Assembly: GCA_964501135.1 (NCBI GenBank)
Contig: CAZCRI010000003.1
Span: 18,654 to 82,653, forward strand
Length of the DNA: 64,000 nt
Direction: 5' to 3'
Origin: an uncultured Candidatus Saccharibacteria bacterium
GTDB taxonomy: Bacteria; Patescibacteriota; CPR2; UBA1875; CAIMLA01
Below the pieces are notes generated by a model. That model searched no databases. It saw nothing but the letters and a program-made list of their open reading frames with translations, and was not told the origin of the DNA. Position numbers and translations under genes: made by a program. Of the stretch, positions 5,716 to 33,349 are shown one piece after another (position 1 is the stretch's first letter; the number at the start of each line of letters is the position of its first letter).

Positions 5716-7533
5716 ATGTCAGAGATAGCCGAAATCGAGCGACCCCACGGACTAGAAGACAGCACAGAAAACCATCTAGAAGATAGCGAAATTACAGAAA
5801 CTCTTAAGCCTAGAAGCTACGTAGACTCCGATGGTACAGAGAGACAAATCTACACACTAAAGAGCAAAGACGGCAAACCCGTAGAGGTAGTATTCTACTC
5901 TCCAGAGGAGATTCCATTCAACGGTGACGTAGTTTCAGATAAGCACGTCATGATACTGGGCGAACAGCCTAAATGGCGCTCCAAGAAAGAGTGGGATACT
6001 TTTGGGCACAACATCGCAACTGAATCTCTAGGGGGAGTCAATAGCCCCTCTATGAGCCATCAAACAGAGCGGGTTCTTGAAGGTAACGGCTTAATTTTTG
6101 CCGAGTCAAACCCTACGGCGATTCTAGACTTGGCAATGATACTGACAGGGGATTCAAGCAAAGAAGATCAAAATGATCGACGAAACGCCCATCTCAAGAT
6201 AATCACCCCTAGAGCACAAGAGATGATGGACAAAATCATCGCGTGTAAGCTATATGACTCGAACGGCAAAAGAAGAAATGCTAGCAGTTATGAAGGTGAG
6301 GTACTAACCTTGCTCGCCCTGGCTGGTAATAACGAGGCTCAGGAGATACTTGACCGCAGTTACGAGCTGATGCAAAAACAGGATGCCGAAACCGAAGCAG
6401 AATTACAAGATCAAATCGCAGAAATGGGGGAGCGCAACAAAGACTCTGAAGATATGAAGATAGAAGATCTAGTTGCTGTTCATGCCACCCGATATTTACC
6501 AAAAACAATCAGTGGTACCCCGACCATTCGTACCACCTTTGATGCTACGGGCTGGGAAGTTCCACGCGACACCGTTCATTTCTCCCTGAACCATCACGTC
6601 GCTGGTCATATGTATGGTAGCTGGGATGGAGCTCCCTACGTCGTGATATCTTCCCTGGGGGATATGATGGAGACCAATGGCAAACCAGCCTCTCTTAACA
6701 CCGTAGATACTTACTTTGAGGCCACTCCTGGTACAGGGGTGAAACTCCCTGAAAGCACCTGGATAGCTAAGCCAGGAATACTGGCAGAAGGTGAAATCGT
6801 TGCGTTCGATGACGAGAAACAAGAGCTTGTATACAAAAACGAACGAATAAATGCAGCCGATATTGCCAAGCTTTACGAATCTCTCGGCTACGACGAAAAA
6901 CAATGGTTCGAATGGACCGTCCTCGACAGGCTTACTGCCGACCTTAGCCAATATGAAGAATGGTGGCGTATCCATGTCACACAAGAACAAAGCGACCGTG
7001 TTTATGAATATCGAAAAGCTGAGGGTTCGGGTCAAGAAACGACTTTGGCATTCGTTGAATTGGGTGTCGATGAAGCAGTGCGAAAAATCTGTGAAGAGAA
7101 GTTTGGGGTAGTACTCTCGGACAAAGACTTCGCTACTTTATGCAACACCATGCGTTCGTACTTTGCTAGTAAGATAAAAACTTTTGCCATCAACAGTCAG
7201 ATTACCAGAATGGGCTACAAACCAGAGCACGGCGGGATGTGGGCCTGGGGAGACTCCTGGGACGTTACTGGCTCTACCGCAAAGTTAGGTGGTGAGATTG
7301 GAGTTCCCGTAATGGCACACTCCGGCACTATCAATTCCGATATGGAAAGCTATGTACCAAGTGAATTCAGACGAATGAATGCTGAGCCTAGGGCAGACGA
7401 TGATGGTTATGCCCCCGTGAAACCCAAAGACCCTAGAGAAGTGAAAGAAGATGTAAAAACTACTGTTAGGGAAAAGGCTGATAAAATATCACCGCAACTC
7501 CGCCGCGCCCTCTACCTGATGGGGGCGCTCTAG
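5716..7533 (+). CDS. Large hypothetical protein (605 aa), acidic N-terminus, no recognisable domain
   Basis: RBS ggaga before ATG; long uninterrupted ORF at native GC; no motif recognised. Confidence 0.6.
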   Translation: MSEIAEIERPHGLEDSTENHLEDSEITETLKPRSYVDSDGTERQIYTLKSKDGKPVEVVFYSPEEIPFNGDVVSDKHVMILGEQPKWRSKKEWDTFGHNIATESLGGVNSPSMSHQTERVLEGNGLIFAESNPTAILDLAMILTGDSSKEDQNDRRNAHLKIITPRAQEMMDKIIACKLYDSNGKRRNASSYEGEVLTLLALAGNNEAQEILDRSYELMQKQDAETEAELQDQIAEMGERNKDSEDMKIEDLVAVHATRYLPKTISGTPTIRTTFDATGWEVPRDTVHFSLNHHVAGHMYGSWDGAPYVVISSLGDMMETNGKPASLNTVDTYFEATPGTGVKLPESTWIAKPGILAEGEIVAFDDEKQELVYKNERINAADIAKLYESLGYDEKQWFEWTVLDRLTADLSQYEEWWRIHVTQEQSDRVYEYRKAEGSGQETTLAFVELGVDEAVRKICEEKFGVVLSDKDFATLCNTMRSYFASKIKTFAINSQITRMGYKPEHGGMWAWGDSWDVTGSTAKLGGEIGVPVMAHSGTINSDMESYVPSEFRRMNAEPRADDDGYAPVKPKDPREVKEDVKTTVREKADKISPQLRRALYLMGAL

Positions 7534-7591: not shown

Positions 7592-7605
7592 AATAAGATT
7601 ATACT

Positions 7606-7634
7606 TGACAATTCTGTCCAAAAGACGTATTATA
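7606..7634 (+). promoter_or_regulatory. Promoter TTGACA-N17-TATTAT for high-GC gene 7698-8087
   Basis: ttgaca 7606-7611, 17-nt spacer, tattat 7629-7634. Confidence 0.45.
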
Positions 7635-7697
7635 TGCTGTCGAAATCATTCGACCTACCGACGAGGTTGCCCAAAGGCAACGAGGGGAGGTGGCTTC

Positions 7698-8087
7698 ATG
7701 CCGCCGATTGCTAGCGAAGAAGAGAAGAGGCAGTACATCGAACTTCTCCTGAAGAACGCTCGTAGACTGGACTACCGGTCTATCCTGCGTTCACCGGAAG
7801 TGAAGCAGGAGTTGAACGGTCAGGAACTGCCGTCCAGTCTTCCGGTCTGGACTATTGCCATCGACGCTGATGACACCTACATCGTCACCGGCCTCGACGC
7901 CAAGGGGCAGGAAGTCGTGAACTTCCTCTACACCATCGGTGGAGAAGAGTACGAACCACGACTCACCACCTTTGTGGCCGCCCAGCTGCTCGTCGAAGGG
8001 GCCATCATCGACCTCATCGTCCAGCACGGCCCTGGCCTCTACTCTGATGTCATCATCGACGAGGTTGTTCAGGACATGGTCGGGTAG
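7698..8087 (+). CDS. Hypothetical protein (130 aa), high-GC island gene
   Basis: RBS gaggggagg then ATG at 7698 (ORF track frame opens at 7605); ~58% GC. Confidence 0.5.
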   Translation: MPPIASEEEKRQYIELLLKNARRLDYRSILRSPEVKQELNGQELPSSLPVWTIAIDADDTYIVTGLDAKGQEVVNFLYTIGGEEYEPRLTTFVAAQLLVEGAIIDLIVQHGPGLYSDVIIDEVVQDMVG

Positions 8088-8255: not shown

Positions 8256-8413
8256 TGTGCTGAGTAATAATTAAGCTAAGGACGGTAAACCCCTTTACAA
8301 AGGCGGAAAAGGGGAATATAATCTGGCCGTCGAGATTCTTCGACGCACTTTGACTGGTGCTTATATTCGAAACGTGGCCTGGCGGCCACCAAGACCTAAG
8401 GAGGCTGGGCCTA

Positions 8414-8965
8414 ATGAACCCAACTCTTCGTTTGACATGGCGCCTCGCGCCCTATATGTTCTTCGCCCTCGGCGGACTGCTCCTCGTAGCTCTCGAACTC
8501 ACCGTCCTGATCCTGATCGGTGTTCACGGTCTGGATGCACTCACGGTGATCGGAACCATCTATCTGGCGTACGTCTGCAAGATGATCGTCGAGTACATGG
8601 GTGGCAACGTGATCGTCAACGAGCTTGGCGAACGCAACGGAAAACCGATCAAGGTCTTCCGTCCTGGCAAGAAGAACATTCGCTTTCTGAAGAAGCTTGG
8701 CTGGTATCACGACTTGGGGAACTACTATCCCGTACTCGTGAACCCTCGTGAGGGCAAGTTTAGCCTCACCAAGCATCTCTTCATGCTCGAACCTGGCTCG
8801 GAGAAGTTCTCCGACCAGCTCCTCGAAGTAGCAGCCACCAACGCGGTGGCCTACGAGGAAATCGCAAAGAAGGTCCAGACCAGCAAGTACTGCGCTTCAA
8901 GTGATCTGAGAAAGTTCGAGAAGGCGAATGCCATCTCGGAGTCAATCAAGGATATCGTGAAGTAG
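8414..8965 (+). CDS. Hypothetical membrane protein (2 TM N-terminus + soluble C-terminus), high-GC island gene
   Basis: RBS aaggagg then ATG 8414 (MNPTLRL...); hydrophobic segments FFALGGLLLVALELTVLILIGV. Confidence 0.5.
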   Translation: MNPTLRLTWRLAPYMFFALGGLLLVALELTVLILIGVHGLDALTVIGTIYLAYVCKMIVEYMGGNVIVNELGERNGKPIKVFRPGKKNIRFLKKLGWYHDLGNYYPVLVNPREGKFSLTKHLFMLEPGSEKFSDQLLEVAATNAVAYEEIAKKVQTSKYCASSDLRKFEKANAISESIKDIVK

Positions 8966-9088: not shown

Positions 9089-9144
9089 ACCTTGTTTTAA
9101 GCACTACTCAAGAGTAGAATGTGGTTATACCAAGGAGAAATTCT

Positions 9145-11250
9145 ATGTCAAACCTTAACCTTAGTGATAACGAAAAACGAGATATTCAAAAATATCTTAC
9201 AGAAAATAAACTGCTCCCAGATAAATACAGGTTTCTTCTTTTTGATTCGACTCGTGAAGTAGAACTTATATGGAATGGCATGTCAGATGATATTGAGAGT
9301 TCAGTATTGCCATTTCAGACAATTGAGCATATTGATGAGCCACGAGATGAAGAGAAGATAAACTCTCAACAAGTGTTATTTGACACCTCGGGAAAACAAA
9401 TCGAAGGATGGTCAAATAAGCTTATCTGGGGCGATAACAAATTTATAATATCCTCACTTAAGAATGGCCCTCTTAGAAAACAGATTGAAGCAGAAGGCGG
9501 ACTAAAGTTAATCTATATAGACCCACCATTTGATGTCGGAGCTGACTTTTCTATGGAGGTAGAAGTTGGAGAGAATAACAGTAAGAATATCTTTACAAAA
9601 AAGCCATCGGTAATTGAAGAGGTCGCATACCGGGACACATGGGGAAAAGGCGCTGACAGCTTCATCTCAATGATATATGAACGACTGAAATTAATGAATG
9701 ATTTATTATCTGAAGACGGAAGTATTTACATACATTGTGACTCACGCGTAAATAGTTATATTCGTCTAATCCTTGACGAAGTGTTTGGAAGAGAAAACTT
9801 TGTAAATGAAATTGCCTGGTGCTACACGAGTGGCGGTGCTGGTAAAACAGCTTTTTCAAAAAAACATGATACGATATACCTCTATTCGAAGGCCAATAAG
9901 CACATTTTTAACATTCAATACTATAAGCGTTATGCCCTAATTCAAGAAGGGGAAGAAGTAGGTTTTGATCCTAGGATACAGTACTATAAAGATGAAAAGG
10001 GGAGAAGTTATCGTTTAAATCTTACTCTTGACTGGTGGAGCGACATTGGAATTGTTTCACCAAATAGCAACACAGAAAGGACGGACTATCCAACACAAAA
10101 GCCAGAGGGCTTACTTCAGAGAATAATTGAGACTTCATCAAATAAGGGCGATTTAGTAGCCGACTTTTTCTGTGGTTCAGGTACAACATTGGCAGTAGCA
10201 GAAAAACTGGGTCGTAAATGGATTGGTTCTGATCTTGGACGGTTTTCAATTCACACCACTCGTAAACGAATGATTGGCGTGCAACGAGAACTAAAAAATG
10301 CCGGGACAGACTTTAGACCATTTGAGATACTTAATATCGGTAAATACGAGAGGGAAAAGTACCTCGGTATTAACGATAGTTTGCGCGATGAAGAAAAACG
10401 AATGCAAAGAGAAAATAAGGAACGCGAATTTATCAAACTCATTCTTTCAGCCTATAAAGCCGAGGCTGTAAATTCCTTTAATAATTTCGTTGGGAAGAAG
10501 CGAGATAGGCTGGTAGCCGTGGGGTCAATTGATACGCCAGTAACAAATGACTTTCTGGAGAATATAATTATTGAGTGCAAAGAAAAGCATATTACAAAAG
10601 TAGACATTCTCGGATTTGACTATGAAATGGGCCTGGACTTTGAAACAACAAAGAAGCTAGGTATTGATGTTCAGTTTAAGGTCATACCTCGAGAAGTATT
10701 TGATAAAAGAGCAATAGAAAGAGGGCAAGTAAAGTTCTATGATGTTGCTTACATTGAAGTTAAACCCATTATCAAGGGCAGAGGAAATGAAAAAGAGGTA
10801 GCAATTGAACTAACCGACTTTAGCGTTTTTTACAATCAGGATAATACCGGAGAGGTTGAGGAAAAATTACAGGCCGGCGGCAGTAAAATTGTTATTGAAA
10901 ATGGACAGGTTATTAAAATTTTCAAGGATAAACAAAGCGGTATAGTAGAACGTGAAACTCTCACGAAGAAATGGACAGACTGGATTGATTATTGGTCTGT
11001 TGACTTTGAATTTGAAAGCAAGAAAGAACTTATCAACATCGCAGATCCCGCAACTGGTAGGGAGGAAAAGAAGTGGACTGGTAATTACATTTTTGAAAAT
11101 GAATGGCAATCCTTTAGAACTAAAAAAAACAGAAACTTAGAGTTAACATCTGCATATAAAATTACGTCGAAGGGTAAAATGAAAATTGCTATCAAGGTAA
11201 TTGATATTTTCGGTAACGATACCACCAAGGTAATTGAGGTGAATGTATGA
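9145..11250 (+). CDS. mod: Type III restriction-modification methyltransferase (Mod), beta-class N6A/N4C MTase
   Basis: Motif IV DPPF (IYIDPPFDV) precedes motif I FCGSGTT (ADFFCGSGTTLAVAEKLGRKWIGSD) with TRD between, the Type III Mod order; RBS aaggaga before ATG 9145; low GC (~37%). Confidence 0.8.
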   Translation: MSNLNLSDNEKRDIQKYLTENKLLPDKYRFLLFDSTREVELIWNGMSDDIESSVLPFQTIEHIDEPRDEEKINSQQVLFDTSGKQIEGWSNKLIWGDNKFIISSLKNGPLRKQIEAEGGLKLIYIDPPFDVGADFSMEVEVGENNSKNIFTKKPSVIEEVAYRDTWGKGADSFISMIYERLKLMNDLLSEDGSIYIHCDSRVNSYIRLILDEVFGRENFVNEIAWCYTSGGAGKTAFSKKHDTIYLYSKANKHIFNIQYYKRYALIQEGEEVGFDPRIQYYKDEKGRSYRLNLTLDWWSDIGIVSPNSNTERTDYPTQKPEGLLQRIIETSSNKGDLVADFFCGSGTTLAVAEKLGRKWIGSDLGRFSIHTTRKRMIGVQRELKNAGTDFRPFEILNIGKYEREKYLGINDSLRDEEKRMQRENKEREFIKLILSAYKAEAVNSFNNFVGKKRDRLVAVGSIDTPVTNDFLENIIIECKEKHITKVDILGFDYEMGLDFETTKKLGIDVQFKVIPREVFDKRAIERGQVKFYDVAYIEVKPIIKGRGNEKEVAIELTDFSVFYNQDNTGEVEEKLQAGGSKIVIENGQVIKIFKDKQSGIVERETLTKKWTDWIDYWSVDFEFESKKELINIADPATGREEKKWTGNYIFENEWQSFRTKKNRNLELTSAYKITSKGKMKIAIKVIDIFGNDTTKVIEVNV

Positions 11251-11804
11251 GCCAGCAATTCATTCCTTTTAGCCATGAGGACATAGAACTAAAAAATGCC
11301 TTGGTCGGTAAAGCAAGGGAATTAAGGAGCTCTGAAGATCTTGGTGCACAACTTTCATCGGCACTAATTTACGCAAGTATTACTGAGTATTTAGCCGAGA
11401 ACTTGTTAGCCAACTTAAGATACCTTGTTTATCGCTCCTCCTATGTTGACTTTGCCGGAATAATATTTATTGATGAGAGAAAGAAGACAAATAAGGCACA
11501 AAAGCAAACACTCGGAGACTCCAAGAACAACCTTGGAAAATACAGTTTCCCAGATAAGCCAGATATTATGGCGGTATTAGAGGAGATAAATAAATCAAGG
11601 AATAATCTATTCCACAATCTCGCCAAAGTTAAAGAGTCGGAATTGCATAAGATAGATACAGACATCAAATGTATACAGAATAATACAGAAGAATTTATTG
11701 AAAAAGTAAATGTACTTTATGCTGGTTTGCAGAAATTGGTAATACCAGAGGCGCCCCAAGTGCCGACTGATACTAAGGAGGGAAAAGAAAATGGCACTGC
11801 ATAA
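11247..11804 (+). CDS. Hypothetical 185-aa protein inserted between mod and res (overlaps both)
   Basis: ATGA overlap with mod stop and 14-nt overlap with res start; no motif recognised. Confidence 0.6.
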   Translation: MSQQFIPFSHEDIELKNALVGKARELRSSEDLGAQLSSALIYASITEYLAENLLANLRYLVYRSSYVDFAGIIFIDERKKTNKAQKQTLGDSKNNLGKYSFPDKPDIMAVLEEINKSRNNLFHNLAKVKESELHKIDTDIKCIQNNTEEFIEKVNVLYAGLQKLVIPEAPQVPTDTKEGKENGTA

Positions 11805-14472
11805 AGATTTTCCTAAGGACAAATTTCAAATACTCGACCCAGCGATTAGATGGTTTCCGGCTGAGGAGGATTTACGTAAGGATGGCTACGAAAAACTCCT
11901 GCCGCCTTTCGTACCTGAGTTAAGGGAAAGAGTAGCGGAGTGGCGTAAGGATCACTATGAGGGTGCTAGTAAGACCTCAAAGGCACTTCTAAGCTGGTGG
12001 TTTAAGGAGCCCCATACTATTTATGGCAAAGATGGTACAAGTATAGCTTTTCAATACTATTTTGCACAAAGAGAAGCCGTAGAAACAATCATCTGGTTAT
12101 ATGAAACGGAAAAAGTAGAGGGTAAATACGATTTAATAAAGTTTGACAAACTGGGACGGGTCAGTCCTAATATGTTTAGTGAAGAGTGGCTACGCTTTGT
12201 TATTAAGATGGCAACAGGTAGTGGCAAGACAAAAGTTATGAGTTTGCTTCTCGCCTGGTCTTACTTTCACAAGCTTTATGAAGAAGGGTCCCAGCTTTCC
12301 AAGAACTTCTTGCTCATAACGCCAAATATCATTGTTCTAGACAGGATTAAAAATGACTTTGTAGGTCTCAAGATATTCTACGAAGACCCAATTCTCCCAG
12401 ACAATGGCTACCATGGTCAAAACTGGCAAGATGATTTTCAGTTAAAGCTTCATCTACAGGATGAGGTTGGTGCTATTTCTAAATCTGGAAACATCTTTCT
12501 AACAAACATACACAGAGTGTATGAAGGAAGCATCAACGAGGCTAGTGCTGATGATGTTGATGTATCAAATTATTTTATGGGCAGTAAGGTGACAGGCAAA
12601 ACTAATGACTCAAAGGTAGATTTGGGTGAAATAGTAAGAGATATTGATGAGCTTATGATAATCAATGATGAAGCGCATCATATCCATGATCCGAATATGG
12701 CTTGGTCAAAGTCAATTGAAGATATTCATAACAAACTTCTACAAAAAGGTGGCAAACTTGCCTTGCAAATTGATGTTACCGCGACGCCAAAAAACAATCG
12801 TGGAGAGATTTTTGTTCAGACCGTAACTGACTACCCACTGGTTGAGGCCATCCACCAGGGTGTTGTCAAAAATCCAGTTTTGCCAGATCTTGCTAGCCAG
12901 GCAAAGTTACAAGAAAAACAAAGCTCAATTTTTTCTGAAAAGTATGAAGACTACATCCGACTTGGTGTAGAAGAGTGGGCCAAAACCTATAAAGAACTTG
13001 AACCGACAGGCAAGAAATCGATCTTGTTCATAATGACTGACGATACCAAGAACTGTGATGACGTAGCTGAGTTTTTAGAGAGGAGCTACGCACAACTCAA
13101 AGGGGCTGTTTTAACAATTCACACTAACCAAAGTGGTGAAATATCAGAGACAGTCTCAGGGAAGAAAGAAAAAGAATTACAAGAACTTCGTAAAAAGGCA
13201 AATGAGATAGATAGTCTTGAGAGTCCGTATAGGGTTATCGTTTCGGTACTTATGCTAAAAGAAGGTTGGGATGTAAAGAACGTAACAACTATCGTGGGGT
13301 TGCGACCATATGGTTCAGACTCAAAAATTCTCCCCGAACAAACTCTCGGTCGCGGTCTTCGTAGAATGTATTTTGGACAAGATGTTGAGGAATACGTGAG
13401 CGTCATCGGTACACCTGCATTTATGGAGTTTGTAGAGTCAATCAAGGCTGAAGGTGTTGAGTTAGAAAAGAGAAGAATGGATCGTTCAGGCACTCCGATT
13501 ACACCGACTGTTATTGAGGTTGATACCGCAAATGTCAAAAAGGATATTGATAATCTAGATATTGAGCTGCCAGTTCTTACTCCGAGAATACAGAGAGAAT
13601 ACAAAAATCTGAATCTTTTGAGTGTTGATAAATTCAAACACAAAAGAATCAAAATAAAACAGTTCTCAGAGGAAGAGAAAAAAGAGATTGTTTTCAAGGA
13701 AATAATTGAAGACAAGTTACATCATACAACAGTCCTGAATAGTTCTATTGAACCTAACTATCAAAGTGTAGTTGGATTCTTTGTTCAACGAATTATGAAA
13801 GAACTAAGGTTGTTCGGTTGCTACGATATACTTTTTGGTAAAGTAAAGGTGTTTATAACTCACGACTTATTTGAAAAGGAAGTTGATCTAAACGACTCCA
13901 ATATTCTGAGAAACCTGTCTGAATTAGAGGCAGTCAAAACAATAGTTGAGACATTCAAAAAGGAAATAAATGACCTGACAGTACAGGATGTTGGTGATAC
14001 TGAAATAAAGAATTATCTCAAAGTAAGTAGCGCGAGACCTTTCGTTGTTACTGATGCTAAATATCTTCTACCGAAGAAAAGCGTATTCAATAAGATAGTT
14101 GGAGATAGTGATTTTGAGCTGGAATTTGCAGATTTTCTTGAGAGAGCTGATGATGTTATTTCATTTGCGAAGAACTACCTAGAAATTCACTTCAAGATTG
14201 ACTATAAAAATGCAAGCGGAGCAATTTCCAGCTATTACCCAGATTTCTTTGTCAAAACAGATAATAAGACGGTCTATATTGTAGAAACTAAGGGACGAGA
14301 AGATCTAGACGATATAGAGAAAATTAAGAGATTGGCACAATGGTGTGAAGACGCAACTGAAAGACAAAAGAAGATAGAATACAAGATGCTTTACGTGAAG
14401 CAAGACGAATGGGAGAGATATAGACCAAGTAAATTCACCGAGTTGATTACTAGTATTGGAATGAAGCCATGA
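11791..14472 (+). CDS. res: Type III restriction enzyme Res subunit (SF2 helicase + C-terminal PD-(D/E)xK nuclease)
   Basis: Walker A MATGSGKTKVM, DEAH box IINDEAHHIHD, helicase motif VI-like region, C-terminal YYPDFFV...VYIVETKGRED nuclease motif. Confidence 0.8.
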   Translation: MALHKDFPKDKFQILDPAIRWFPAEEDLRKDGYEKLLPPFVPELRERVAEWRKDHYEGASKTSKALLSWWFKEPHTIYGKDGTSIAFQYYFAQREAVETIIWLYETEKVEGKYDLIKFDKLGRVSPNMFSEEWLRFVIKMATGSGKTKVMSLLLAWSYFHKLYEEGSQLSKNFLLITPNIIVLDRIKNDFVGLKIFYEDPILPDNGYHGQNWQDDFQLKLHLQDEVGAISKSGNIFLTNIHRVYEGSINEASADDVDVSNYFMGSKVTGKTNDSKVDLGEIVRDIDELMIINDEAHHIHDPNMAWSKSIEDIHNKLLQKGGKLALQIDVTATPKNNRGEIFVQTVTDYPLVEAIHQGVVKNPVLPDLASQAKLQEKQSSIFSEKYEDYIRLGVEEWAKTYKELEPTGKKSILFIMTDDTKNCDDVAEFLERSYAQLKGAVLTIHTNQSGEISETVSGKKEKELQELRKKANEIDSLESPYRVIVSVLMLKEGWDVKNVTTIVGLRPYGSDSKILPEQTLGRGLRRMYFGQDVEEYVSVIGTPAFMEFVESIKAEGVELEKRRMDRSGTPITPTVIEVDTANVKKDIDNLDIELPVLTPRIQREYKNLNLLSVDKFKHKRIKIKQFSEEEKKEIVFKEIIEDKLHHTTVLNSSIEPNYQSVVGFFVQRIMKELRLFGCYDILFGKVKVFITHDLFEKEVDLNDSNILRNLSELEAVKTIVETFKKEINDLTVQDVGDTEIKNYLKVSSARPFVVTDAKYLLPKKSVFNKIVGDSDFELEFADFLERADDVISFAKNYLEIHFKIDYKNASGAISSYYPDFFVKTDNKTVYIVETKGREDLDDIEKIKRLAQWCEDATERQKKIEYKMLYVKQDEWERYRPSKFTELITSIGMKP

Positions 14473-15751: not shown

Positions 15752-15780
15752 TTGACGTACCACGCCTTTTGTGCTATAAT
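15752..15780 (+). promoter_or_regulatory. Promoter TTGACG-N17-TATAAT for gene 15791
   Basis: ttgacg 15752-15757, spacer 17, tataat 15775-15780. Confidence 0.5.
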
Positions 15781-15790
15781 TGCACTGTAA

Positions 15791-16873
15791 ATGAAAACAG
15801 CAAACCCACAAAAAACAAATATGAAGGGCCAAAAACTCGACGTAAATGCAGAAGTTGAGTTTATTTTTGCTGCTCCAAAGCTAAAAAAAGAGCGCGACCA
15901 AGCTGTCATTACTGATCGCTTTGGGCTTACTGGAGCCAAACCAAAGACCCTAGAGGAAATTGGTAAGGCCCTGGGGATTACCCGTGAGCGCGTGCGACAG
16001 ATCGAGAAAAATACCCTCAAGAAGCTCTCTGACTTTGTTGCTACCGACCTGAGAGGTCAGGAGATTTCTTCGGTTATTCTGGGCGCTATCAAGAGCGAAG
16101 GCGGCGTAGTCCGTGCCACAACCCTAGATAACGACATCCTCGGTGAGAACGCCAGTGCCAAGGCCAAGCACCAGCTTAGCTTTATCGTGGCCTGCTCTAC
16201 CGACATTTCACTATACACAGAGAGCAATCACGCTCATCGCAGCTACTTCATGGCGCCTCTTGCCTCACCAGTAATTGATAAGGTGCTAAAAGAAGCCGTT
16301 TCTATCCTAAAGAGTGAAGATAAGCCAGTAGAAGAGAAGGCACTAGTTGCGAAGATTCGCAAAGCTGTCTCGGATCTAGAGCCCAAGACTATTGTCGCTA
16401 TCATCGCTATCAGTAAGGTAATATTGCGTACTGAGTCGGGTCACCTCGGTCTCTCTCATTGGCGCGACATCAACCCAAAGAGCATCAAGGACAAGACCTA
16501 TTACATTCTAAAGAAACACAACAAGCCACTGCACTATACCGACATCGCTGATCACATTCAGAACTTTGGCGGTAAAGAGAAACATGTCACCAAGCAAGCG
16601 GTACACAACGAGTTGATTCGTGACGAACGTTTTGTCCTGATTGGCCGTGGTATCTACGCACTCTCTGAGTGGGGATACGCCTCTGGTGTTGTTGAGGAAG
16701 TAATCGAAACCGTCCTGATCGAGGCCGGACGCCCAATGCACAAAGACGACATTATCGATGAAGTTCTAAAGCGTCGCATGGTAAAAGAAACAACTATTTT
16801 ACTAAATCTACAAAAAAAGCGCTTCAAAAGGGTAGCGAGAGCAACGTATACTGTATCTAACGGGAGGGAATAA
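15791..16873 (+). CDS. Sigma-70 region-4 (HTH) domain protein with ~280-aa C-terminal extension
   Basis: [27 protein letters not shown] matches the sigma-70 region 4.2 signature; the remainder is unrecognised. Confidence 0.6.
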
Positions 16874-19800
16874 GTGCTGATTCAAGATATTAGCCTGGCG
16901 ATACTCGGCGGAATGTGGTCCGTCGTGGTTTGGACATGGTGGATAGTAGTGCCGATACTTGGCTACTTCACCTGGAAGAACTACAAAAAAGCAGAGTATG
17001 TTGAGGCGATTGAAACAGTCGTTCTCTCGATTAAAATCCCTAAGAATAACGAAAAAGGTCCGATAGCTGCCGAGATGATGCTAGCGGCGCTTCATGGTAT
17101 CTTGCATCCAAAAAGCCAGCAAAAGAAGGGGACTAGTGTACAAGAGCACCTGAGTTTCGAGATTGTCTCGACCCTCAATGCGATTGAATTCTTTGTTTGG
17201 GTACCGACACACCTAAAGGACTTCGTAGAAGGCCAGGTATACGCCCAGTATCCAACCGCCGAGATTACTACTGTTAGTGACTATTCACTCGATATCGATA
17301 TTGACGATGATAAAGTAGACGACGCCGTCGTCGGCACCGAGCTGGTACTGACGAAGGACGAGATTTATCCGATCAAGACCTTTCTGAACTTTGACGTCGA
17401 CCCACTGGCCGGCATTACAGGTATGCTTTCGAAAATTGAGCAAAAGAGTGAACAGGTCTGGATTCAGATTCTCGCCAAGCCTGTCGATGACGAATGGCGT
17501 GATGGCTCACTAGGGCACATTGCGAGCAAAAAGGGTGGGGCTGGCAGTGCTGATACCTGGGTGCATAAGCTAATCGATATTTTGATTATGCCCCTGCAGG
17601 TAATACCATACATGATCAATGCGATCATTTCGCCAATGACACCAGAACAGAAGAAGAAGCAGGAAGAAAAAGAGAAGAAGGAGAAGGAGAAGAAGGAGAA
17701 GGAAGCTCCGAAGCTCTCTCATTCTGAAGAAACTGAACTCTCTGCGATCGAAGAGAAGGCCAATAAGCTTGGGTACAAAGTAATTATCCGTATCTGTTAC
17801 CTCGCCAAAAGCCCTGAGAAAGCCAAGGAGCGCATCCAGGCCGTGATTGGTGCCTTCAAACAATTCAATACTACTAACCTCAATGGTTTTCAGGGGAGCG
17901 GCCTCTACACCGGACAAGACTTCTTGGACGCTTACCGTGCTCGTCTTTTCAATAATCACGGCTACACTCTAAATATCGAGGAACTCGCGAGCCTCTACCA
18001 CTTACCACACGTTTCAGTAGAAACCCCGAATATCCTCTGGACCTCATCTAAAAAGGGCGAGCCACCAAGCAGCTTGCACATTATTGACTCCGAAGACACT
18101 GTCGATAAAGAGCTCACACCGATGGGAACCACTACCTTCCGTAACGGACAGCGTACCTTTGGTATCACTAGAGACGACCGCCGTAGACATATGTACATCA
18201 TCGGTAAGAGTGGTGTCGGTAAATCACGTATGATGGCAAATCTTGCTATCAACGACATCATTAATGGTGAGGGTGTCGCCGTAGTCGACCCACATGGTGA
18301 GCTTATCGAGCTGATCATGAAATACATTCCAAAGGAACGTATCGACGACGTGATTTATCTGAACCCAGCTGACAAAGATTTTCCGATTGGTTTTAATCCC
18401 CTGGAATCTCCAGAGGGAATGCGTGAAGAGACCGCCAAGGGCTTTATCTCGGTACTCAAACGTATGTTTGGGTATTCGTGGGGTCCTCGTTTGGAATACG
18501 TCCTAAACCACACTGTACTGGCTCTCTCTGAGGTAGAAGGCTCAACGATGCTCGGCATCGTCCGTCTCCTGACCGACAAGGGCTATCGCAAGCGCATCGT
18601 CGAGCAAGTTACCGACCCGGTAGTGCAGATGTTCTGGCTCAAGGAATTCTCGACCTATAACGACAAGATGGCCACCGAAACTGTAGCTCCTATCCTAAAC
18701 AAGGTAGGACAATTTACGGCTTCGGCGATAATTCGTAACATCGTCGGCCAGCCGAAGAGTAGTATCGACTTTTCGGAAATAATGAATACCGGAAAGATAC
18801 TTCTCGTGGACCTCTCTACCGGTAAGATAGGGGAGGTAAACTCCGAACTGCTGGGCTCCCTGATCATTACCAAGCTGCAGCTTGCTGCGATGCAACGTGC
18901 CTACATCCCCGAGGAAGAGCGCAAAGACTTCTACCTCTACGTCGACGAATTCCAGAACTTTGCTACTGACTCCTTTGCGACGATTCTCTCAGAAGCCCGT
19001 AAGTATCGCTTGTCCCTCTGCGTGGCCAATCAGTACATTGCTCAGATGGAAGAAACTGTACGCGACGCTGTCTTTGGTAACGTCGGTACTCTCGTCTCTT
19101 TCCGCGTTGGCGCCACTGATGCCTCTTACCTCGAGAAAGAGTTTGAACCAGTATTTACCCAGAACGACCTGATCAACCTCGATAACCGACACATGTATCT
19201 AAATATGCTGATCAACGGCGTTACGAGTATACCTTTCTCAGCGATGTCCCTAAATACACCAGAGATGAAAGAAGATTGCTCGGCGATTGTAAAGGCCGTC
19301 TCGCGCGAGAAATACGGCAAGAAGCGTGAACTGGTCGAGGATGAGGTAAAACACTGGTACAACGTGGACTCAGTAGTTGCTGGTATCAACGCCAACGAGA
19401 AGGACGACCCAATTGTGACCAAACCAAAGCCTACCATTGTTCGTGAAAAATCTGAGCAGGGGAGTACCCCTAGCCAGCCACTACGAGAAAAGAAAGAAAC
19501 TAATATTAATCCCCCTGCCAGCAAGACCACCGAGAGTCCAAAGAAGAGTGACCTTCAGCTCGCCATAATTGCAAATACTAAAAAATCTGGGAAAGCAGCC
19601 GACAAACCTATGACCGAGAAACAAAAAGTAATCGCCGAGCTCGAGAAGAGTGCGGACTACATCGTGCGCCACAAGGACAAGGACGACAAGTACGTCTTTT
19701 TGCCAAACCACAAACCAGAAGGAGTGATTCCTGACAAGCGTGGCCGCCAAAAGGGCAACAACTACAAGAAGAATGGCCAAAAGATCTACGAAGTAAAGAT

Positions 19801-20449
19801 TAGTATGTACGAACCCAAAGAACATGATCTCTTTGGCGATGGTCGTGCTCCTGATGTCTGGGTAGGTACGGCTGCAGAAATGATCGACCAGTTACAGGCT
19901 ATCGGTGCTGGCCTAGGTGGTGGCAGCAAATTCCTCGGCGTCGAGGACCACACAGATACTCCCGCTATCCTAGAAGCGCTCCTTGCAAAGCAGAAAACCG
20001 CATCTACAGAGAAGGCTCGTGAGACGATTGCGGATAAAATCGGGGTAGATACACTATCTAGCCTCAAGAAGGCCGTCAGCGTGCCCGAAAAACCCGTAGA
20101 AGCGGTCAAGGAACCTACTCCAGAGGCAGTAAAAGAAGAAACCAAAACCCCTGAGGTCGAGGTGGCTCCTGAAAAGCCAGCTGCACCCGAGAAAACTGAA
20201 ATAAAAGAAACAACAAAACCCAAAGAACCCGTAGCTGCCGAACCAGTAGGGAAGAGCCTCGAAGAGATCAAGGACGTCCTGCTCTCTGTCTCCCATCCTA
20301 AAGAGCACCCTATTTACCGTGAAAAGGTCGAGAAGCAGATCACCCCAGAGGACTTTCATAACCTTAAAACAATTGAGCCACACGAACGAATCAGGGTGGT
20401 GACCAAAGAACTGAAGCCAGGGGAGACAGTTCACCTAACAAAACCATAA
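16874..20449 (+). CDS. Membrane-anchored VirD4/TraD-like (type IV coupling protein family) P-loop ATPase with long K/E/P-rich C-terminal tail
   Basis: N-terminal TM helices; Walker A IIGKSGVGKSRMMAN and DPHGE (HerA/DUF87-like); FYLYVDEFQNFAT (TraG-D_C type Walker B); low-complexity KEKKEKEKKEKE and PEKP repeats. Confidence 0.65.
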   Translation: MLIQDISLAILGGMWSVVVWTWWIVVPILGYFTWKNYKKAEYVEAIETVVLSIKIPKNNEKGPIAAEMMLAALHGILHPKSQQKKGTSVQEHLSFEIVSTLNAIEFFVWVPTHLKDFVEGQVYAQYPTAEITTVSDYSLDIDIDDDKVDDAVVGTELVLTKDEIYPIKTFLNFDVDPLAGITGMLSKIEQKSEQVWIQILAKPVDDEWRDGSLGHIASKKGGAGSADTWVHKLIDILIMPLQVIPYMINAIISPMTPEQKKKQEEKEKKEKEKKEKEAPKLSHSEETELSAIEEKANKLGYKVIIRICYLAKSPEKAKERIQAVIGAFKQFNTTNLNGFQGSGLYTGQDFLDAYRARLFNNHGYTLNIEELASLYHLPHVSVETPNILWTSSKKGEPPSSLHIIDSEDTVDKELTPMGTTTFRNGQRTFGITRDDRRRHMYIIGKSGVGKSRMMANLAINDIINGEGVAVVDPHGELIELIMKYIPKERIDDVIYLNPADKDFPIGFNPLESPEGMREETAKGFISVLKRMFGYSWGPRLEYVLNHTVLALSEVEGSTMLGIVRLLTDKGYRKRIVEQVTDPVVQMFWLKEFSTYNDKMATETVAPILNKVGQFTASAIIRNIVGQPKSSIDFSEIMNTGKILLVDLSTGKIGEVNSELLGSLIITKLQLAAMQRAYIPEEERKDFYLYVDEFQNFATDSFATILSEARKYRLSLCVANQYIAQMEETVRDAVFGNVGTLVSFRVGATDASYLEKEFEPVFTQNDLINLDNRHMYLNMLINGVTSIPFSAMSLNTPEMKEDCSAIVKAVSREKYGKKRELVEDEVKHWYNVDSVVAGINANEKDDPIVTKPKPTIVREKSEQGSTPSQPLREKKETNINPPASKTTESPKKSDLQLAIIANTKKSGKAADKPMTEKQKVIAELEKSADYIVRHKDKDDKYVFLPNHKPEGVIPDKRGRQKGNNYKKNGQKIYEVKISMYEPKEHDLFGDGRAPDVWVGTAAEMIDQLQAIGAGLGGGSKFLGVEDHTDTPAILEALLAKQKTASTEKARETIADKIGVDTLSSLKKAVSVPEKPVEAVKEPTPEAVKEETKTPEVEVAPEKPAAPEKTEIKETTKPKEPVAAEPVGKSLEEIKDVLLSVSHPKEHPIYREKVEKQITPEDFHNLKTIEPHERIRVVTKELKPGETVHLTKP

Positions 20450-20470
20450 TTTGCAACTGATGCAATCTTT

Positions 20471-20499
20471 ACAGCCCATACCAAATGGGCTGTAATTTT
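20471..20499 (+). terminator. Rho-independent terminator after 1191-aa gene
   Basis: acagcccat-accaa-atgggctgt then aattttg. Confidence 0.6.
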
Positions 20500-21072
20500 G
20501 GCTAAAACAGGCCCGAGCCGGGAGGCCTAATATTTAGGAATATTTAGATATATATCAAAACAAGGGGGTCTACGCTGAGGGAGCGGAAGGTCCCGGAGAA
20601 AAGATATATTATGAGTATTTACTTAGTTTCTTTGCTGCTTACTGGCCTGTCATCTCGGCGATTGATATTGTGTCGCACAATATATCTTGGACGACATTGC
20701 GCATTCTGAGATTCCCGGGTGTAGTTGGTCATCCAAAAGGAGTTTTAAACGTACATTTTCCCTATATATAGGCACAAACCGCGGGTCTAGCTTCCCAAAT
20801 TTGGGCCGCTTGGTCTGGTCAATATGATTTGTAGAACCTGTAAAAGACAGCCAAATAATCTGGCTGGAATCTGACGATCATTTGCAATTAATACTTAGTT
20901 TCCGCTCGCCTACCAAGAGTTTGAAACGAGACTGAATAAGATAATAATTAATTAACATTTAATATAATATTAGTTAATTCTTTTGCTCACTTGCCCACTC
21001 CCCCAGGTCTCCCCCAATAATCGGAAAATAGATTGCCGCGTCACTACGCTCCTCGCAATGACGTAGGGGTGT

Positions 21073-21254
21073 TTCTTTCCGCGACCTGCAAAATACAGCG
21101 AGCGACGACCCGAGTGACTATCATAAAAAATAATGTTTGACCCCGACGCTACCGTCGGGAGAGTTTTGCTTTTTATGAAGGAACGAAGTAGGAGTGACAC
21201 TAGCGATTTTGCAAGGAGTCGGCAGTTTTGCACCACTTTTGCTGTCAAAAGTGG
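21073..21254 (-). repeat. Repeat R2, inverted copy of R1
   Basis: Ends near-identical to R1 in reverse complement; middle ~80 bp diverged. Confidence 0.8.
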
Positions 21255-21259
21255 TAAGG

Positions 21260-21366
21260 ATTTGTGACTACGGACAAAATTACTAACGTGTTGAGAAAGA
21301 GATCCTGAAACAAGTTCAGGATGGCGTGTAGGTGAGATTGCCGCGCTTCGCTCGCAATGACGAGGG
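21260..21366 (+). promoter_or_regulatory. H1-H2-M composite element copy C (H1 21260-21280, H2 21302-21322, M 21343-21366)
   Basis: atttgt-gactacgg-acaaaat; atcctgaa-acaag-ttcaggat; gcgcttcgctcgcaatgacgaggg. Confidence 0.4.
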
Positions 21367-21453
21367 CTATGGACGAGATTCCTCCACTACCTACTCGTGC
21401 CGAGGCTAGTTCGGGCTGGCTGGCTTGCGACCAGGAATGACAGAAGAATAGGA

Positions 21454-32083: not shown

Positions 32084-33349
32084 TCAATCACTTTGAGGTG
32101 CCGGATTTAAGACTACTGAAGATTTCTGCACTACTGGGTTTGTGCCTTCATTCAGTCTCTCGTCTAATTCTGAAATAACCTCGCCAATTTGTTCAATGAC
32201 ACCAACAACAAGAGCATTCCCCATACAAAAAAATCTGAATTTCTCAGGCATACCAGTATTTGTCCAGTTGGCTGGAAACCCATTTATCTTTTCCGCCTCA
32301 ACAGGAGTTAATGTTCTAATCCCGTCTTTATCCTCTACGTAATGAGTACTACGATTAATGCTCGACTCCGAGGTCAACATTGTTCTAGCTGGCCTTGTAG
32401 CGGGGTCTGGGAAAACAACTGTCCCTTCTGCATAGTTATAAGTAAATCCATCCTTAGTTGTTCTTACTTCCCTTTTCCCCTCTTTGGTTTTTTTTGCGGC
32501 TGCCAACTGAGAATCCGAGAGGTAATAACGTTCATCAGCGCCTTTTTCAAGAATATCACCCAGCAACGCACGCTTTCCAAAATATACAGGTTCATAGTCT
32601 GACATTTTAACAACTCCAGAAATCATTGAACCAATATTTAGAAACTTCCCAGAATCGTACTTCTCGGAGACTGAAAAAGTATCAGAGAACCTAGCCATAT
32701 CAAAAATGACTTCTTTGCCTTTTAGCTTGTAATTAAACTTACCCTTATAGAGGTGATCTTCTGATAATTCAAAATTACCTCCACTATGTAATTTCAAATT
32801 TCGTTTATAGGCAAAAATGTAAACCCTTCGTCTTCTTTGTACGAAGCCGTAGTCAGCCGCGTTAACAACCATCCACTGAACATCATAACCATTCTTATCA
32901 AGAGACTTCAGAACAATCGCAAAATCTCTTCCTCGCTGTGAGGATGGTGATTTCAATAGCCTATCCACATTTTCCAACAAGATGTATTTTGGATTTCTTT
33001 TTGAAATAATTTTATCAATTTCCCACCAGAGGACGCCCTTTTTCCCTTGAATTCCAGCAGCTTTCGTTCTGGCTACCGAATAATCCTGACAAGGAAATCC
33101 CCCTACCAATAAATCATGCTTTGGCGGATTTTGTGCCAATACCGCGATGTCTTCGTTACTATGGAAGTCCTCTCTAAAGTTCTGTTGATAGCAATCAAAT
33201 GCGTGTTGAGACTTTTTACCTGGCTCCCATTGATTGGCCAAAATTGTCTCAAAAGAGCTACTGGCTGCCTCCAGACCAAGTCGAAAACCACCTACACCCG
33301 CGAAAAGCTCTAATACCTTAATTTTATTGTCTGATTTATTTTTATTCAT
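32084..33349 (-). CDS. DNA (cytosine-5)-methyltransferase
   Basis: Motif I FAGVGGF, motif IV GGFPCQDYS, ENV motif (LLENV). Confidence 0.9.
   Translation of the reverse strand: MNKNKSDNKIKVLELFAGVGGFRLGLEAASSSFETILANQWEPGKKSQHAFDCYQQNFREDFHSNEDIAVLAQNPPKHDLLVGGFPCQDYSVARTKAAGIQGKKGVLWWEIDKIISKRNPKYILLENVDRLLKSPSSQRGRDFAIVLKSLDKNGYDVQWMVVNAADYGFVQRRRRVYIFAYKRNLKLHSGGNFELSEDHLYKGKFNYKLKGKEVIFDMARFSDTFSVSEKYDSGKFLNIGSMISGVVKMSDYEPVYFGKRALLGDILEKGADERYYLSDSQLAAAKKTKEGKREVRTTKDGFTYNYAEGTVVFPDPATRPARTMLTSESSINRSTHYVEDKDGIRTLTPVEAEKINGFPANWTNTGMPEKFRFFCMGNALVVGVIEQIGEVISELDERLNEGTNPVVQKSSVVLNPAPQSD

Follow-up and report, generated by a model that had tools for sequence, protein, structure and literature searches.

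The window analysed here is a 64,000-nucleotide stretch of contig CAZCRI010000003.1 from an uncultured Candidatus Saccharibacteria bacterium. It carries on the forward strand two adjacent genes, A (positions 15791 to 16873, 360 aa) and B (16874 to 20449, 1191 aa), both ORFs lying where a first-pass annotation had placed them. Gene A is supported by its ORF and translation, Pfam and NCBIfam matches and an AlphaFold2 (AF2) model, and gene B encodes, from its N-terminus onwards, a transmembrane (TM) helix, DUF8128, an ATPase of the TrwB/VirD4 type, a disordered tail and finally a C-terminal motif. As thousands of homologues exist (at least 7998 of A in a database search), the two are real genes rather than chance ORFs. 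A sigma-70-type promoter-like site, TTGACG-17-(TG)TATAAT (15752 to 15780, + strand), a consensus match only, agrees with the consensus at 11 of 12 positions and has the extended -10 TG; with 10 nt between its end and the ATG, A would have a very short leader or none. Direct reading of the sequence places a Shine-Dalgarno-like GGGAGGG for B (16862 to 16868, +) within the last codons of A, the TAA stop of A (16871 to 16873) abuts the GTG start of B (16874), and an intrinsic-terminator-like hairpin, a pattern match only, with an 11-bp stem followed by TTTTGG (20469 to 20501, +), lies 20 nt 3' of the B stop. Read from the DNA, the promoter-like site, the internal ribosome-binding site, the abutting stop and start and the terminator-like hairpin mark A and B as one putative operon.

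Protein A begins with sigma region 4 (the 4.1/4.2 helix-turn-helix; residues 18–85, 15842 to 16045, +), identified by Pfam (Sigma70_r4, residues 34–79, E 4e-14), PDB sequence matches and Foldseek. The best PDB sequence matches were to region 4 of HrdB/SigA (E 1.6e-11), and Foldseek aligned it with sigmaA region 4 at 1.1–2.3 Å rmsd and 40–48% identity. Across the family the recognition helix TRERVRQIE does not vary (R65, E66, R67, R69 and Q70), and it is nearly identical to that of the primary sigma factors, among them SigA, HrdB and RpoD. Unlike these, A has no regions 1–3; Sigma70_r4 is the only sigma region that Pfam found, with no match to region 2 or 3, and A, as had been proposed, falls short of a complete sigma factor. 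The remainder, previously described as an unknown C-terminal domain, consists instead of four tandem winged helices in the AF2 model (pLDDT 91.2). Winged helices 1 and 2 (residues 87–221, 16049 to 16453, +; from AF2 secondary structure) are the least conserved part of A (mean top-residue frequency 0.36–0.43) and winged helices 3 and 4 (residues 232–355, 16484 to 16855, +) the most conserved (0.74–0.76). The latter pair is of the HARE-HTH type found in the RNA polymerase (RNAP) delta subunit: Pfam HARE-HTH matches A in two stretches (E 5.5e-12), and A reaches 43.3 bits with the NCBIfam RNAP-delta model TIGR04567, whose cutoff is 42. A thus has the HARE-HTH fold in common with the delta subunit (RpoE) of Bacillota but lacks its acidic C-terminal tail, and differs from delta and sigma alike in its two additional winged helices and in being encoded with a membrane ATPase.

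For protein B, more than one N-terminal TM helix had been suggested; one confident helix, at about residues 6–34 (16889 to 16975, +), is supported by AF2, which models a helix over residues 2–45, and by hydropathy (above 1.5 in the window's B, with a median family maximum of 2.12), while the family does not keep the second hydrophobic stretch (228–256) as a TM helix. Between the TM helix and the ATPase lies DUF8128 (PF26449; residues 45–400, 17006 to 18073, +), about 350 aa that AF2 models as two alpha/beta sub-domains and a variable amphipathic or charged linker (about 222–282). The PF26449 assignment is precomputed on all B homologues, including the 93%-identical P0001; the local Pfam copy gave no match in this region of the window's B. 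The P-loop ATPase (residues 414–800, 18113 to 19273, +) is of the type IV coupling protein (T4CP; TrwB/VirD4/TraD) type by Pfam and Foldseek. PF10412 (TrwB_AAD_bind), PF12696 (TraG-D_C), PF02534 (T4SS-DNA_transf) and PF01935 (DUF87) all exceed their gathering cutoffs, and the motifs noted earlier are present: GKSGVGKS (444–451; Walker A, G444–S451), DPHGE (472–476) and VDEFQNF (690–696; Walker B, D691–E692). Walker A, Walker B and the other motor and catalytic residues are invariant in 59 homologous sequences. The ATPase superposes on TrwB with a TM score of 0.62–0.68, normalised to TrwB, at 4–6 Å rmsd, and the alignment to the whole of TrwBdeltaN70 covers 413–465 columns. An all-alpha domain (residues 514–639, 18413 to 18790, +) is inserted in the ATPase fold, modelled by AF2 as eight consecutive helices with strands 493–496 and 642–646 on either side. 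NCBIfam equivalog models stay far below cutoff on B (39 vs 250 bits). Residues 831–1130 (19364 to 20263, +) form the low-complexity tail, K/E/A/P-rich by composition and much as first described, whose length and sequence vary between lineages (unaligned or variable alignment columns). Alignment shows that it is followed by a C-terminal motif, ITPEDFHNLKTIEPHERI...KPGETVHL (residues 1131–1191, 20264 to 20446, +), kept in the window's clade, WS5, CPR2 and Howlettbacteria and degenerate in Saccharimonadia.

B shares with the conjugative T4CPs (TrwB of R388, VirD4, TraD, PcfC, Cag-beta, DotL) the P-loop domain with its inserted all-alpha domain, the N-terminal membrane anchor, a small DNA-binding protein encoded alongside, and a long C-terminal tail with a short conserved peptide at its end. 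In TraD such a tail binds TraM. B differs from them in having one TM helix rather than two, in its added DUF8128, in its core chromosomal position and vertical inheritance, and in the want of relaxase, oriT or mating-pair-formation genes nearby; its partner is a sigma region 4/winged-helix protein, whereas the accessory of the conjugative T4CPs is a ribbon-helix-helix protein. Each B subunit has a single TM helix, and no channel partner is recognised, which tells against the motor role proposed below.

The pairing of A and B, anticipated in the first-pass annotation, is conserved: in 63 of 75 GTDB species loci B has A no more than 300 bp upstream, and a 3-kb limit raises this to 70, leaving five in which B has no A upstream. 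The pair recurs in other CPR classes. It is placed between topA and the cell-division (dcw) cluster, and the order DprA-TopA-A-B facing the dcw cluster is also found in WS5, CPR2 and other lineages. A reciprocal search from A covered 19 full-length A loci, with B or its N-domain directly downstream in 13. Among the remaining six, three distant loci (L107, L109 and L110) had no B over at least 2 kb downstream, and three contigs end less than 0.5 kb from A. In Parcubacteria (Yanofskybacteria, Harrisonbacteria and unnamed lineages) the neighbourhood is different, SecD-SecF-A-DUF8128-ATPase (in locus L176 the contig cuts off the genes upstream), and the DUF8128 and ATPase parts of B are two separate genes. 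This arrangement is evidence of gene fission or fusion and of a linkage independent of context. Since B is split there with the order kept, the unit is a module of three parts, A, DUF8128 and ATPase, rather than the two-part pair first envisaged.

Directly upstream of A-B in the window is a type III restriction-modification (R-M) island. With ATPase relatives on plasmids (41% identity to one from Sulfitobacter), four IMG/VR contigs and Bacillus phages, and weak PADLOC matches to mad8 and HerA, it might be taken to mark A-B as the remnant of an integrative conjugative element (ICE), plasmid or phage, or as a defence system, a reading already disfavoured that we consider scarcely credible. The GC content of A-B matches the surrounding genome whereas that of the island does not, the closest relative lacks the island but retains A-B, A-B holds a syntenic place on the chromosome in different CPR classes, and both families are marked in published tables as core and enriched in Patescibacteria (PMC10633639). 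No integrase was found near A-B, and a Pfam scan of 30 window ORFs (most of the larger ones) gave no VirB4, VirB6 or relaxase, in line with the original annotation. A-B is a vertically inherited core operon of Patescibacteria, with no adjacent conjugative element, and not part of an ICE; this core distribution replaces the specialised role in epibiotic host interaction suggested at first.

Full-length relatives of the DUF8128-ATPase part occur in Bacillus and Geobacillus phages that have no A-like gene. The phage family phrog_5156 (phage G gp156, JL, Shanette, PBC5, CP-51, TP-84, 0305phi8-36) has the B-like N-domain and ATPase (HMM E 1.4e-79 over residues 45–825; Foldseek E 2e-46; 21–24% identity). 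In phage G and vB_BceS-M2, both examined, the gene lies among uncharacterised genes without an A-like gene, and in vB_BceS-M2 recombination and replication genes follow just downstream.

A 2025 survey found VirD4-type homologues in 2,918 of 3,035 Patescibacteria genomes (~96%), with only 148 of 5,713 copies near virB4, VirB4 in 2,417 genomes (80%) and only 109 relaxases, and termed the orphan coupling proteins, far from virB4, 'possibly exapted' (PMC12102498). By Pfam architecture and synteny these orphans, and SEML1_0293 and SEML1_0294 of Southlakia epibionticum, belong to the same families as A and B. B could be the missing coupling protein of a type IV secretion system (T4SS) encoded elsewhere in the genome, with A as a substrate-recruiting accessory factor. 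Pfam and fold both place B in the T4CP family, the S. epibionticum T4SS cluster has no recognisable coupling protein (PMC10633639), T4CP genes are often encoded far from virB4 (PMC12102498), and in phage G a VirB-like ATPase adjoins the B-like gene. However, we judge this unlikely. In none of the loci examined was the module linked to T4SS genes. T4CP-like genes also outnumber VirB4 by genome, relaxases are almost absent, the S. epibionticum T4SS cluster is essential whereas the B homologue is not (PMC10633639), and the essential SEML1_0142, a second paralogue of T4CP type, is the better candidate for the role.

In the transposon sequencing (Tn-seq) data for S. epibionticum the A homologue SEML1_0294 is essential and the B homologue SEML1_0293 dispensable, with reads for the latter falling gradually (5817, 2940, 1372) (PMC10633639, Table S1); the two are taken as orthologues of the window genes because the published tables show the same Pfam architecture and synteny. 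A therefore cannot simply be the 'dedicated partner' of B, as it had been called; its main role does not need B, and their adjacency could be regulatory rather than physical. A may accordingly be an essential RNAP-associated transcription factor, a sigma region 4 mimic with a delta-like domain, tied to B only by co-transcription or autoregulation, and B may work alone, for example as a cytoplasmic motor for ComEC-dependent uptake of DNA. Besides the essentiality difference, the -35-contacting residues of primary sigma kept in A and its score above the RNAP-delta cutoff agree with this. S. epibionticum is moreover naturally competent, with ComEC, a ComFC-like protein and DprA and without annotated ComFA, RNAP delta or HelD, and dprA is close upstream in many lineages. 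We nevertheless find it doubtful, as the order of A, DUF8128 and ATPase survives both the change from topA-dcw to secDF and gene fission, more than mere co-regulation would lead one to expect. In addition, A lacks the acidic tail of delta, dprA linkage is absent in Parcubacteria, and fitness does not fall in ComEC mutants but drops about four-fold over the passages in mutants of the B homologue.

Streptomyces TraB and FtsK/SpoIIIE, each a membrane-anchored hexameric DNA pump with a winged-helix DNA-recognition element, bear a conceptual likeness to the module. There the winged helix is fused to an FtsK_SpoIIIE-type motor; here it is a separate protein, and B has no FtsK_SpoIIIE Pfam match. A role in chromosome segregation or cell division, with the winged helices of A directing sequence-specific loading as the FtsK gamma domain does, would suit a membrane-anchored ATPase of the FtsK/HerA superfamily that adjoins the dcw cluster in Saccharimonadia, CPR2 and WS5 and whose homologue has a mild fitness defect. 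Such a role is quite improbable given that S. epibionticum has a canonical, essential FtsK with alpha and gamma domains, that the module and the dcw genes are convergently oriented and not co-transcribed, and that dcw linkage is lost in Parcubacteria.

We tentatively propose, with a little less than even confidence, that A-B is the operon of a Patescibacteria-wide three-part module acting as a T4SS-independent, DNA-handling motor at the membrane that is recruited by A. A would be a cytoplasmic protein binding nucleic acid or RNA polymerase, DUF8128 a membrane-anchored domain holding the ATPase at the cytoplasmic face, and the ATPase a hexameric-type P-loop motor of the TrwB/VirD4 clade that would translocate or remodel DNA (as nucleoprotein). 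A would bring the ATPase to DNA as TraM, TrwA and PcfF do for conjugative coupling proteins, possibly via the conserved C-terminal peptide of B, and would also serve transcription or nucleoid function in an essential capacity that does not require B. Directly observed are the structure of the genes, their domains, the intact catalytic motifs, the triad kept in different CPR neighbourhoods, the fission and fusion of DUF8128 and ATPase, and the lack of linkage to T4SS or relaxase genes. Hexamer formation, the DNA substrate, A-B contact and the direction and purpose of translocation are all points that we infer; a predicted role in DNA uptake or translocation is plausible. In the text and tables of PMC12102498 and PMC10633639, which we searched, there is no mention of the sigma region 4/HARE-HTH gene pairing, and neither DUF8128 as a separable component nor the split Parcubacteria form is described; the three-gene form, with the SecDF-A-DUF8128-ATPase order kept, is new.

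ATPases of the T4CP family can couple proteins too, which counts against the DNA-motor reading.

The 360-aa sigma region 4/winged-helix protein (A; 15791-16873, + strand, ATG start) and the 1191-aa coupling protein-like ATPase (B; 16874-20449, + strand) are encoded end to end, with the GTG start of B abutting the TAA stop of A. A promoter-like site (TTGACG-17-TGnTATAAT, 15752-15780, + strand, 11 of 12 consensus matches) is predicted 10 nt upstream of the ATG of A, a predicted ribosome-binding-type signal (GGGAGGG, 16862-16868, + strand) lies within the 3' end of A, and a predicted terminator-like hairpin (11-bp stem followed by TTTTGG, 20469-20501, + strand) begins 20 nt past the stop of B. 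Four predicted signals, recognised as consensus matches, thus delimit A and B as one putative bicistronic unit. Rfam and tRNA scans of the 15-21.5 kb interval gave no matches. The ∼1 kb between the terminator and ftsQ (20502-21453) holds a single ORF of 92 aa (20970-21248, - strand), also with no Rfam match.

Pfam places Sigma70_r4 at residues 34-79 of A (E 4e-14) and two HARE-HTH stretches elsewhere in the protein (E 5.5e-12), and finds no sigma region 2 or 3. NCBIfam sigma models are confined to residues ∼14-86 and all fall far under their cutoffs; among solved proteins, the closest sequence matches are to region 4 of the primary sigma factors HrdB and SigA (E 1.6e-11). An AlphaFold2 model built from 50 homologues (mean pLDDT 91.2) comprises region 4 (residues 18-85) followed by four winged helices (residues 87-154, 159-221, 232-291 and 301-355). 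By Foldseek, the first domain superposes on sigmaA region 4 at 1.1-2.3 Å with 40-48% identity, and the remainder resembles tandem winged-helix arrays such as those of SelB and UFL1/DDRGK1. The first-pass annotation was right that region 4 is the only sigma region, but the C-terminal domain that it called unknown resolves into this winged-helix array with HARE-HTH matches. Winged helices 3 and 4 are the most conserved part (0.74-0.76), region 4 ranks between (0.60), and winged helices 1 and 2 are poorly conserved; the recognition helix of region 4, TRERVRQIE, is invariant across the A family and, in an alignment, identical to that of E. coli sigma-70.

The RNA polymerase delta model TIGR04567 matches residues 231-304 of A marginally (43.3 bits, cutoff 42). 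A shares the HARE-HTH domain with delta, but lacks the long acidic C-terminal tail of that small (∼170-aa) protein: it has 230 extra N-terminal residues and ends (...TYTVSNGRE) 5 residues past winged helix 4. Compared with sigma-70 factors, it has region 4 without region 2, which serves core binding and -10 recognition. A is therefore neither a sigma factor nor an RNA polymerase delta subunit. Rather, it combines modules that in sigma and delta touch -35 DNA or the beta flap, and RNA polymerase.

The motifs quoted for B in the first-pass annotation are present in its sequence, and B exceeds the Pfam gathering scores of PF10412 (TrwB_AAD_bind, 30.3 bits, cutoff 20.5), PF12696 (TraG-D_C, 26.8 bits, cutoff 22), PF02534 (T4SS-DNA_transf, 23.7 bits, cutoff 20.1) and DUF87. 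Walker A (G444-K450) and the Walker B pair D691/E692 are invariant in 59 B homologues. NCBIfam equivalogs (CD1115, TraD and CedD) reach at best 38-39 bits against cutoffs of 250-650, the best stretch of each type IV coupling protein (T4CP) match falling within the Walker A region. An AlphaFold2 model of residues 1-830 (pLDDT 84.1) shows a long N-terminal helix (residues 2-45), a first α/β domain (48-221), a variable, poorly predicted linker, a second α/β sub-domain (283-375) and an ATPase (414-800), between whose core strands an eight-helix, all-α insert is placed (514-639). The best PDB superposition by Foldseek is TrwB (rmsd 4-6 Å, 17% identity), with 413-465 columns aligned to the whole of TrwBΔN70 (TM 0.62-0.68 normalised to TrwB), followed by Cag-β, DotL and HerA; VirB4/TrwK aligns over ∼900 columns with a TM of only 0.29. 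With hhalign, comparison of the B alignment with pCF10 PcfC (VirD4-like) and PrgJ (VirB4-like), each as a single sequence, gave uninformative probabilities below 10%. The best 50 PDB matches comprise TrwB, VirB4, HerA, Cag-β and DotL; FtsK is not among them, and none of the FtsK-type domains PF01580, PF09397 and PF13491 matches B at E < 0.01 in Pfam. Thus, of the hallmarks of FtsK/SpoIIIE (the FtsK_SpoIIIE motor, the 4TM N-domain and the gamma winged helix), none was matched in B.

B shares with the VirD4/TrwB/TraD T4CPs the P-loop nucleotide-binding domain and the all-α insert within it, but differs in what precedes it. T4CPs carry two transmembrane helices directly before this domain, whereas B has one, followed by the 350-aa DUF8128. 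Several N-terminal transmembrane helices had been proposed for B; AlphaFold2 and hydropathy leave just one that is confident and conserved, the first (approximately residues 6-34). A candidate second helix at residues 228-256 was rejected, since the hydrophobicity that B shows there is not kept in the family (median hydropathy 1.36). PF26449 (DUF8128) is precomputed on all 120 homologues among the matches listed, including one 93% identical to B, and through these homologues residues 45-400 of B probably correspond to DUF8128; the N-domain alone and the tail alone had no match in a Pfam set that does not contain PF26449. Residues 831-1130 form a variable tail rich in K, E, A and P. The last ∼60 residues carry a motif, ITxExFxxLKxIxPHExI...PGExI.F, which is kept in the clade of the window, WS5, CPR2 and Howlettbacteria; Saccharimonadia have a degenerate version of it. 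We considered whether loss of A at the locus tracks loss of this motif and found no signal: locus L064 has a motif-like B end despite A missing there, and its A may lie elsewhere in the genome.

Homologues of A and of B each number in the thousands, and those that are named are nearly all from Patescibacteria. With one genome scanned per GTDB species, B turned up in at least 596 species, the best 80 loci being almost all Saccharimonadia. Among 75 GTDB species loci with at least 1.2 kb of upstream sequence, A is encoded on the strand of B and no more than 300 bp upstream of it in 63, up to 1.6 kb away in a further 6 and at a greater distance in 1; it is absent at the locus in 5. The pairing of the two genes is therefore conserved. 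In L064, L065, L068, L050 and L080, A is missing upstream at the locus, and B stands straight after topA or another gene. An apparent natural A-B fusion (L013, 1340 aa) was traced to a stretch of N in the contig and rejected as an artefact. In two Saccharibacteria genomes (L060, 4819-7365; L076, 5643-8189), a second full-length B paralogue of 848 aa is joined by a 175-aa gene, both immediately upstream of the A-B pair.

The surroundings are core chromosome (topA, mgsA, the dcw cluster, ribosomal protein operons, tuf, fusA and rpoC), with two restriction-modification islands also in the window. Saccharimonadia, WS5, CPR2 and further lineages share the gene order Der-Pth-DprA-TopA-A-B with FtsQ...MraW convergent to it, and the closest relative (GCA_041738615.1, B 93% identical) has the same arrangement with the type III restriction-modification island missing. 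A Pfam scan of 30 ORFs of the 64-kb window, including most of the larger ones, detected no VirB4, VirB6, relaxase or integrase, bearing out the earlier remark that VirB4, VirB6 and relaxase are not nearby, and no T4SS or relaxase genes accompany B in the related loci examined. The first-pass annotation had allowed that an adjacent integrative conjugative element might reduce the pair to one of its parts. Conserved topA-dcw synteny across CPR classes and the same arrangement in the closest relative refute this, and no integrase, relaxase or mating-pair-formation genes lie nearby that would mark an integrative element or plasmid remnant. A mobile-element or defence remnant, which the neighbouring restriction-modification island might suggest, is very improbable; PADLOC gives only generic ATPase and sigma region 4 matches for the pair.

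The pair is in fact a triad that can come apart. A metagenome search from A recovered 19 full-length A loci, with B or its N-domain alone directly downstream in 13; L107, L109 and L110 have at least 2 kb downstream of A with neither. In L101 and L108, the gene after A encodes a 413-486-aa protein consisting of DUF8128 only. A HMMER search with residues 1-400 of B against 1.84 billion representatives gave 2184 matches at E ≤ 1e-3 (264 at E ≤ 1e-30); among the best 150 of the 2184, 40 carry the ATPase in the same protein and 83 stand alone (median 434 aa). The stand-alone forms occur in the order SecD-SecF-A-DUF8128-ATPase, the last three being consecutive separate genes; named examples are from Yanofskybacteria and Harrisonbacteria, both Parcubacteria. 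DUF8128 and the ATPase are fused in Saccharimonadia, CPR2, WS5, Howlettbacteria and Woesebacteria. A C-terminal zf_Tbcl_2 zinc finger (PF23477) is present on the ATPase in three of six loci with a fully called gene (L173, L176 and L178), and is missing from the separate Parcubacteria ATPases of L181 and L182/L183. In the fused B proteins, the last 70 residues are devoid of CxxC pairs, and a short conserved peptide forms the end instead. Fission and fusion of DUF8128 and ATPase, and an A-DUF8128-ATPase order kept in a wholly different neighbourhood, indicate that the three parts are functionally coupled and probably physically coupled as well. We conclude that sigma region 4/winged-helix protein, DUF8128 membrane domain and T4CP-clade ATPase form a vertically inherited CPR core module. 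The module is neither a conjugative element nor genetically linked to the T4SS.

Outside CPR, PHROG family 5156 matches residues 45-825 of B (E 1.4e-79), and full-length homologues by sequence and structure are encoded by phages of Bacillus and Geobacillus (phage G gp156, JL, Shanette, PBC5, CP-51, TP-84 and 0305phi8-36). The B homologue lies just upstream of recombination and replication genes in vB_BceS-M2, and adjoins the VirB-like ATPase gp155 in phage G (L090, 84955-99132). No A-like winged-helix protein was matched in these phages. Certain phage DUF8128-ATPase homologues are misannotated as "lipid A export/MsbA-like". Motor-only relatives occur on four IMG/VR viral contigs (L086-L089), and a soluble stand-alone ATPase of 395 aa, 41% identical to the B motor, is encoded on the Sulfitobacter mediterraneus plasmid NZ_CP081110.1 (99994-101181). 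That alphaproteobacterial gene sits amid recombinase and transposase genes. More distant ATPase relatives are found on Bacillus, Streptomyces, haloarchaeal and Sulfolobus plasmids.

In Southlakia epibionticum, SEML1_0294 adjoins SEML1_0293 downstream of DprA and TopA (PMC10633639, Tables S1 and S2); we equate them with A and B, respectively, by architecture and synteny rather than by alignment. SEML1_0294 has Sigma70_r4 and HARE-HTH and is described as one tri-helical and three winged domains, SEML1_0293 carries PF10412, PF12696 and PF01935, and both are flagged as core and Patescibacteria-enriched (PMC10633639). SEML1_0294 was called essential (input insertions falling from 24 to 1), whereas SEML1_0293 was called non-essential (normalised reads 5817, 2940 and 1372) (PMC10633639). 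That the A homologue is essential and the B homologue dispensable is the main fact lying beyond any simple dedicated-pair model. If A were purely transcriptional, as its polymerase-contacting modules might suggest, B would be an independent DNA-uptake motor; set beside the conserved pairing, this division of roles seems unlikely.

VirD4-type T4CP homologues are reported in 2,918 of 3,035 Patescibacteria genomes (∼96%), VirB4 in 2,417 and relaxases in only 109; just 148 of 5,713 T4CP copies lie near virB4, and the authors remark that t4cp may have been exapted (PMC12102498). In the tables for S. epibionticum, the T4SS cluster SEML1_0006-0019 is essential and has no coupling protein, and a second T4CP-like gene, SEML1_0142, is essential (PMC10633639). 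B could be the coupling protein that this cluster lacks, but with a dispensable B homologue and no T4SS association we regard this, too, as unlikely. B replacing a missing FtsK was rejected, given that a canonical FtsK is present and essential in S. epibionticum (PMC10633639). A role of the module in segregation or division, which its position beside the dcw cluster might invite, is improbable. The text and tables searched of PMC12102498 and PMC10633639 do not describe the A-B pairing or a DUF8128 component, and further literature searches turned up no account of the pairing.

The reading that we favour, tentatively, is that the B ATPase would be a membrane-held motor working on DNA or nucleoprotein, that A would recruit it, by analogy with TrwB-TrwA and TraD-TraM, and that A would additionally hold an essential role of its own. 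A more ambitious version is quite doubtful: the triad would be an unrecognised CPR-specific membrane machine in which A loads a DUF8128-held, T4CP-derived motor with no T4SS channel. Here A, as a sigma region 4 mimic, might recognise either promoter-like DNA or the flap of RNA polymerase; the motor might pump or remodel DNA. The S. epibionticum tables include ComEC, a ComFC-like protein and DprA, with ComFA, RNA polymerase delta and HelD not annotated (PMC10633639). Such a machine could possibly be the missing ComFA-like DNA-import motor in organisms dependent on scavenged nucleic acids. In a more radical variant, A itself would be cargo delivered to the host cell, redirecting host RNA polymerase.

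A very large part of bacterial diversity belongs to the Patescibacteria, in which the majority of lineage-specific core genes are still without an assigned function. The module unites two core, Patescibacteria-enriched families, one of them essential in the sole CPR organism with genome-wide Tn-seq, and the orphan T4CP ATPase, present in ∼96% of CPR genomes, has a sigma region 4/HARE-HTH protein and a DUF8128 domain as its consistent genetic companions. This co-encoding, and its persistence through fission and change of neighbourhood, turns scattered "hypothetical" annotations into one testable unit. It also sets the ATPase apart from the essential T4SS, which bears on epibiont-host exchange of DNA or proteins. 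Since S. epibionticum is genetically tractable, the predictions are directly testable on SEML1_0293/SEML1_0294.

The type III restriction-modification island (9121-14472; GC 0.38 against ∼0.47), absent at the same position in the closest relative, encodes an N6/N4 methylase (9121-11250) and a Res helicase that bears a TnsA-like endonuclease domain (11791-14472), and between them a 185-aa ORF (11247-11804) for which PADLOC gives weak CARF/Csx1-like matches. The second low-GC island (0.40; 32084-34036) encodes a C5 cytosine methylase (32084-33349, - strand) and a BglII-like endonuclease (33422-34036, + strand) and lies next to a four-tRNA cluster (34478-35236). Between mgsA and the type III island, a 605-aa ORF (5716-7533) and smaller ORFs (7605-8087 and 8357-8965) have no Pfam or PADLOC match; GCA_041738615.1 has different genes at this place (an M23 peptidase, an MFS transporter and small ORFs). 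An ECF-type sigma factor (Sigma70_r2 and r4_2; 3269-3877, - strand) is encoded between topA and mgsA and is also found in the closest relative.
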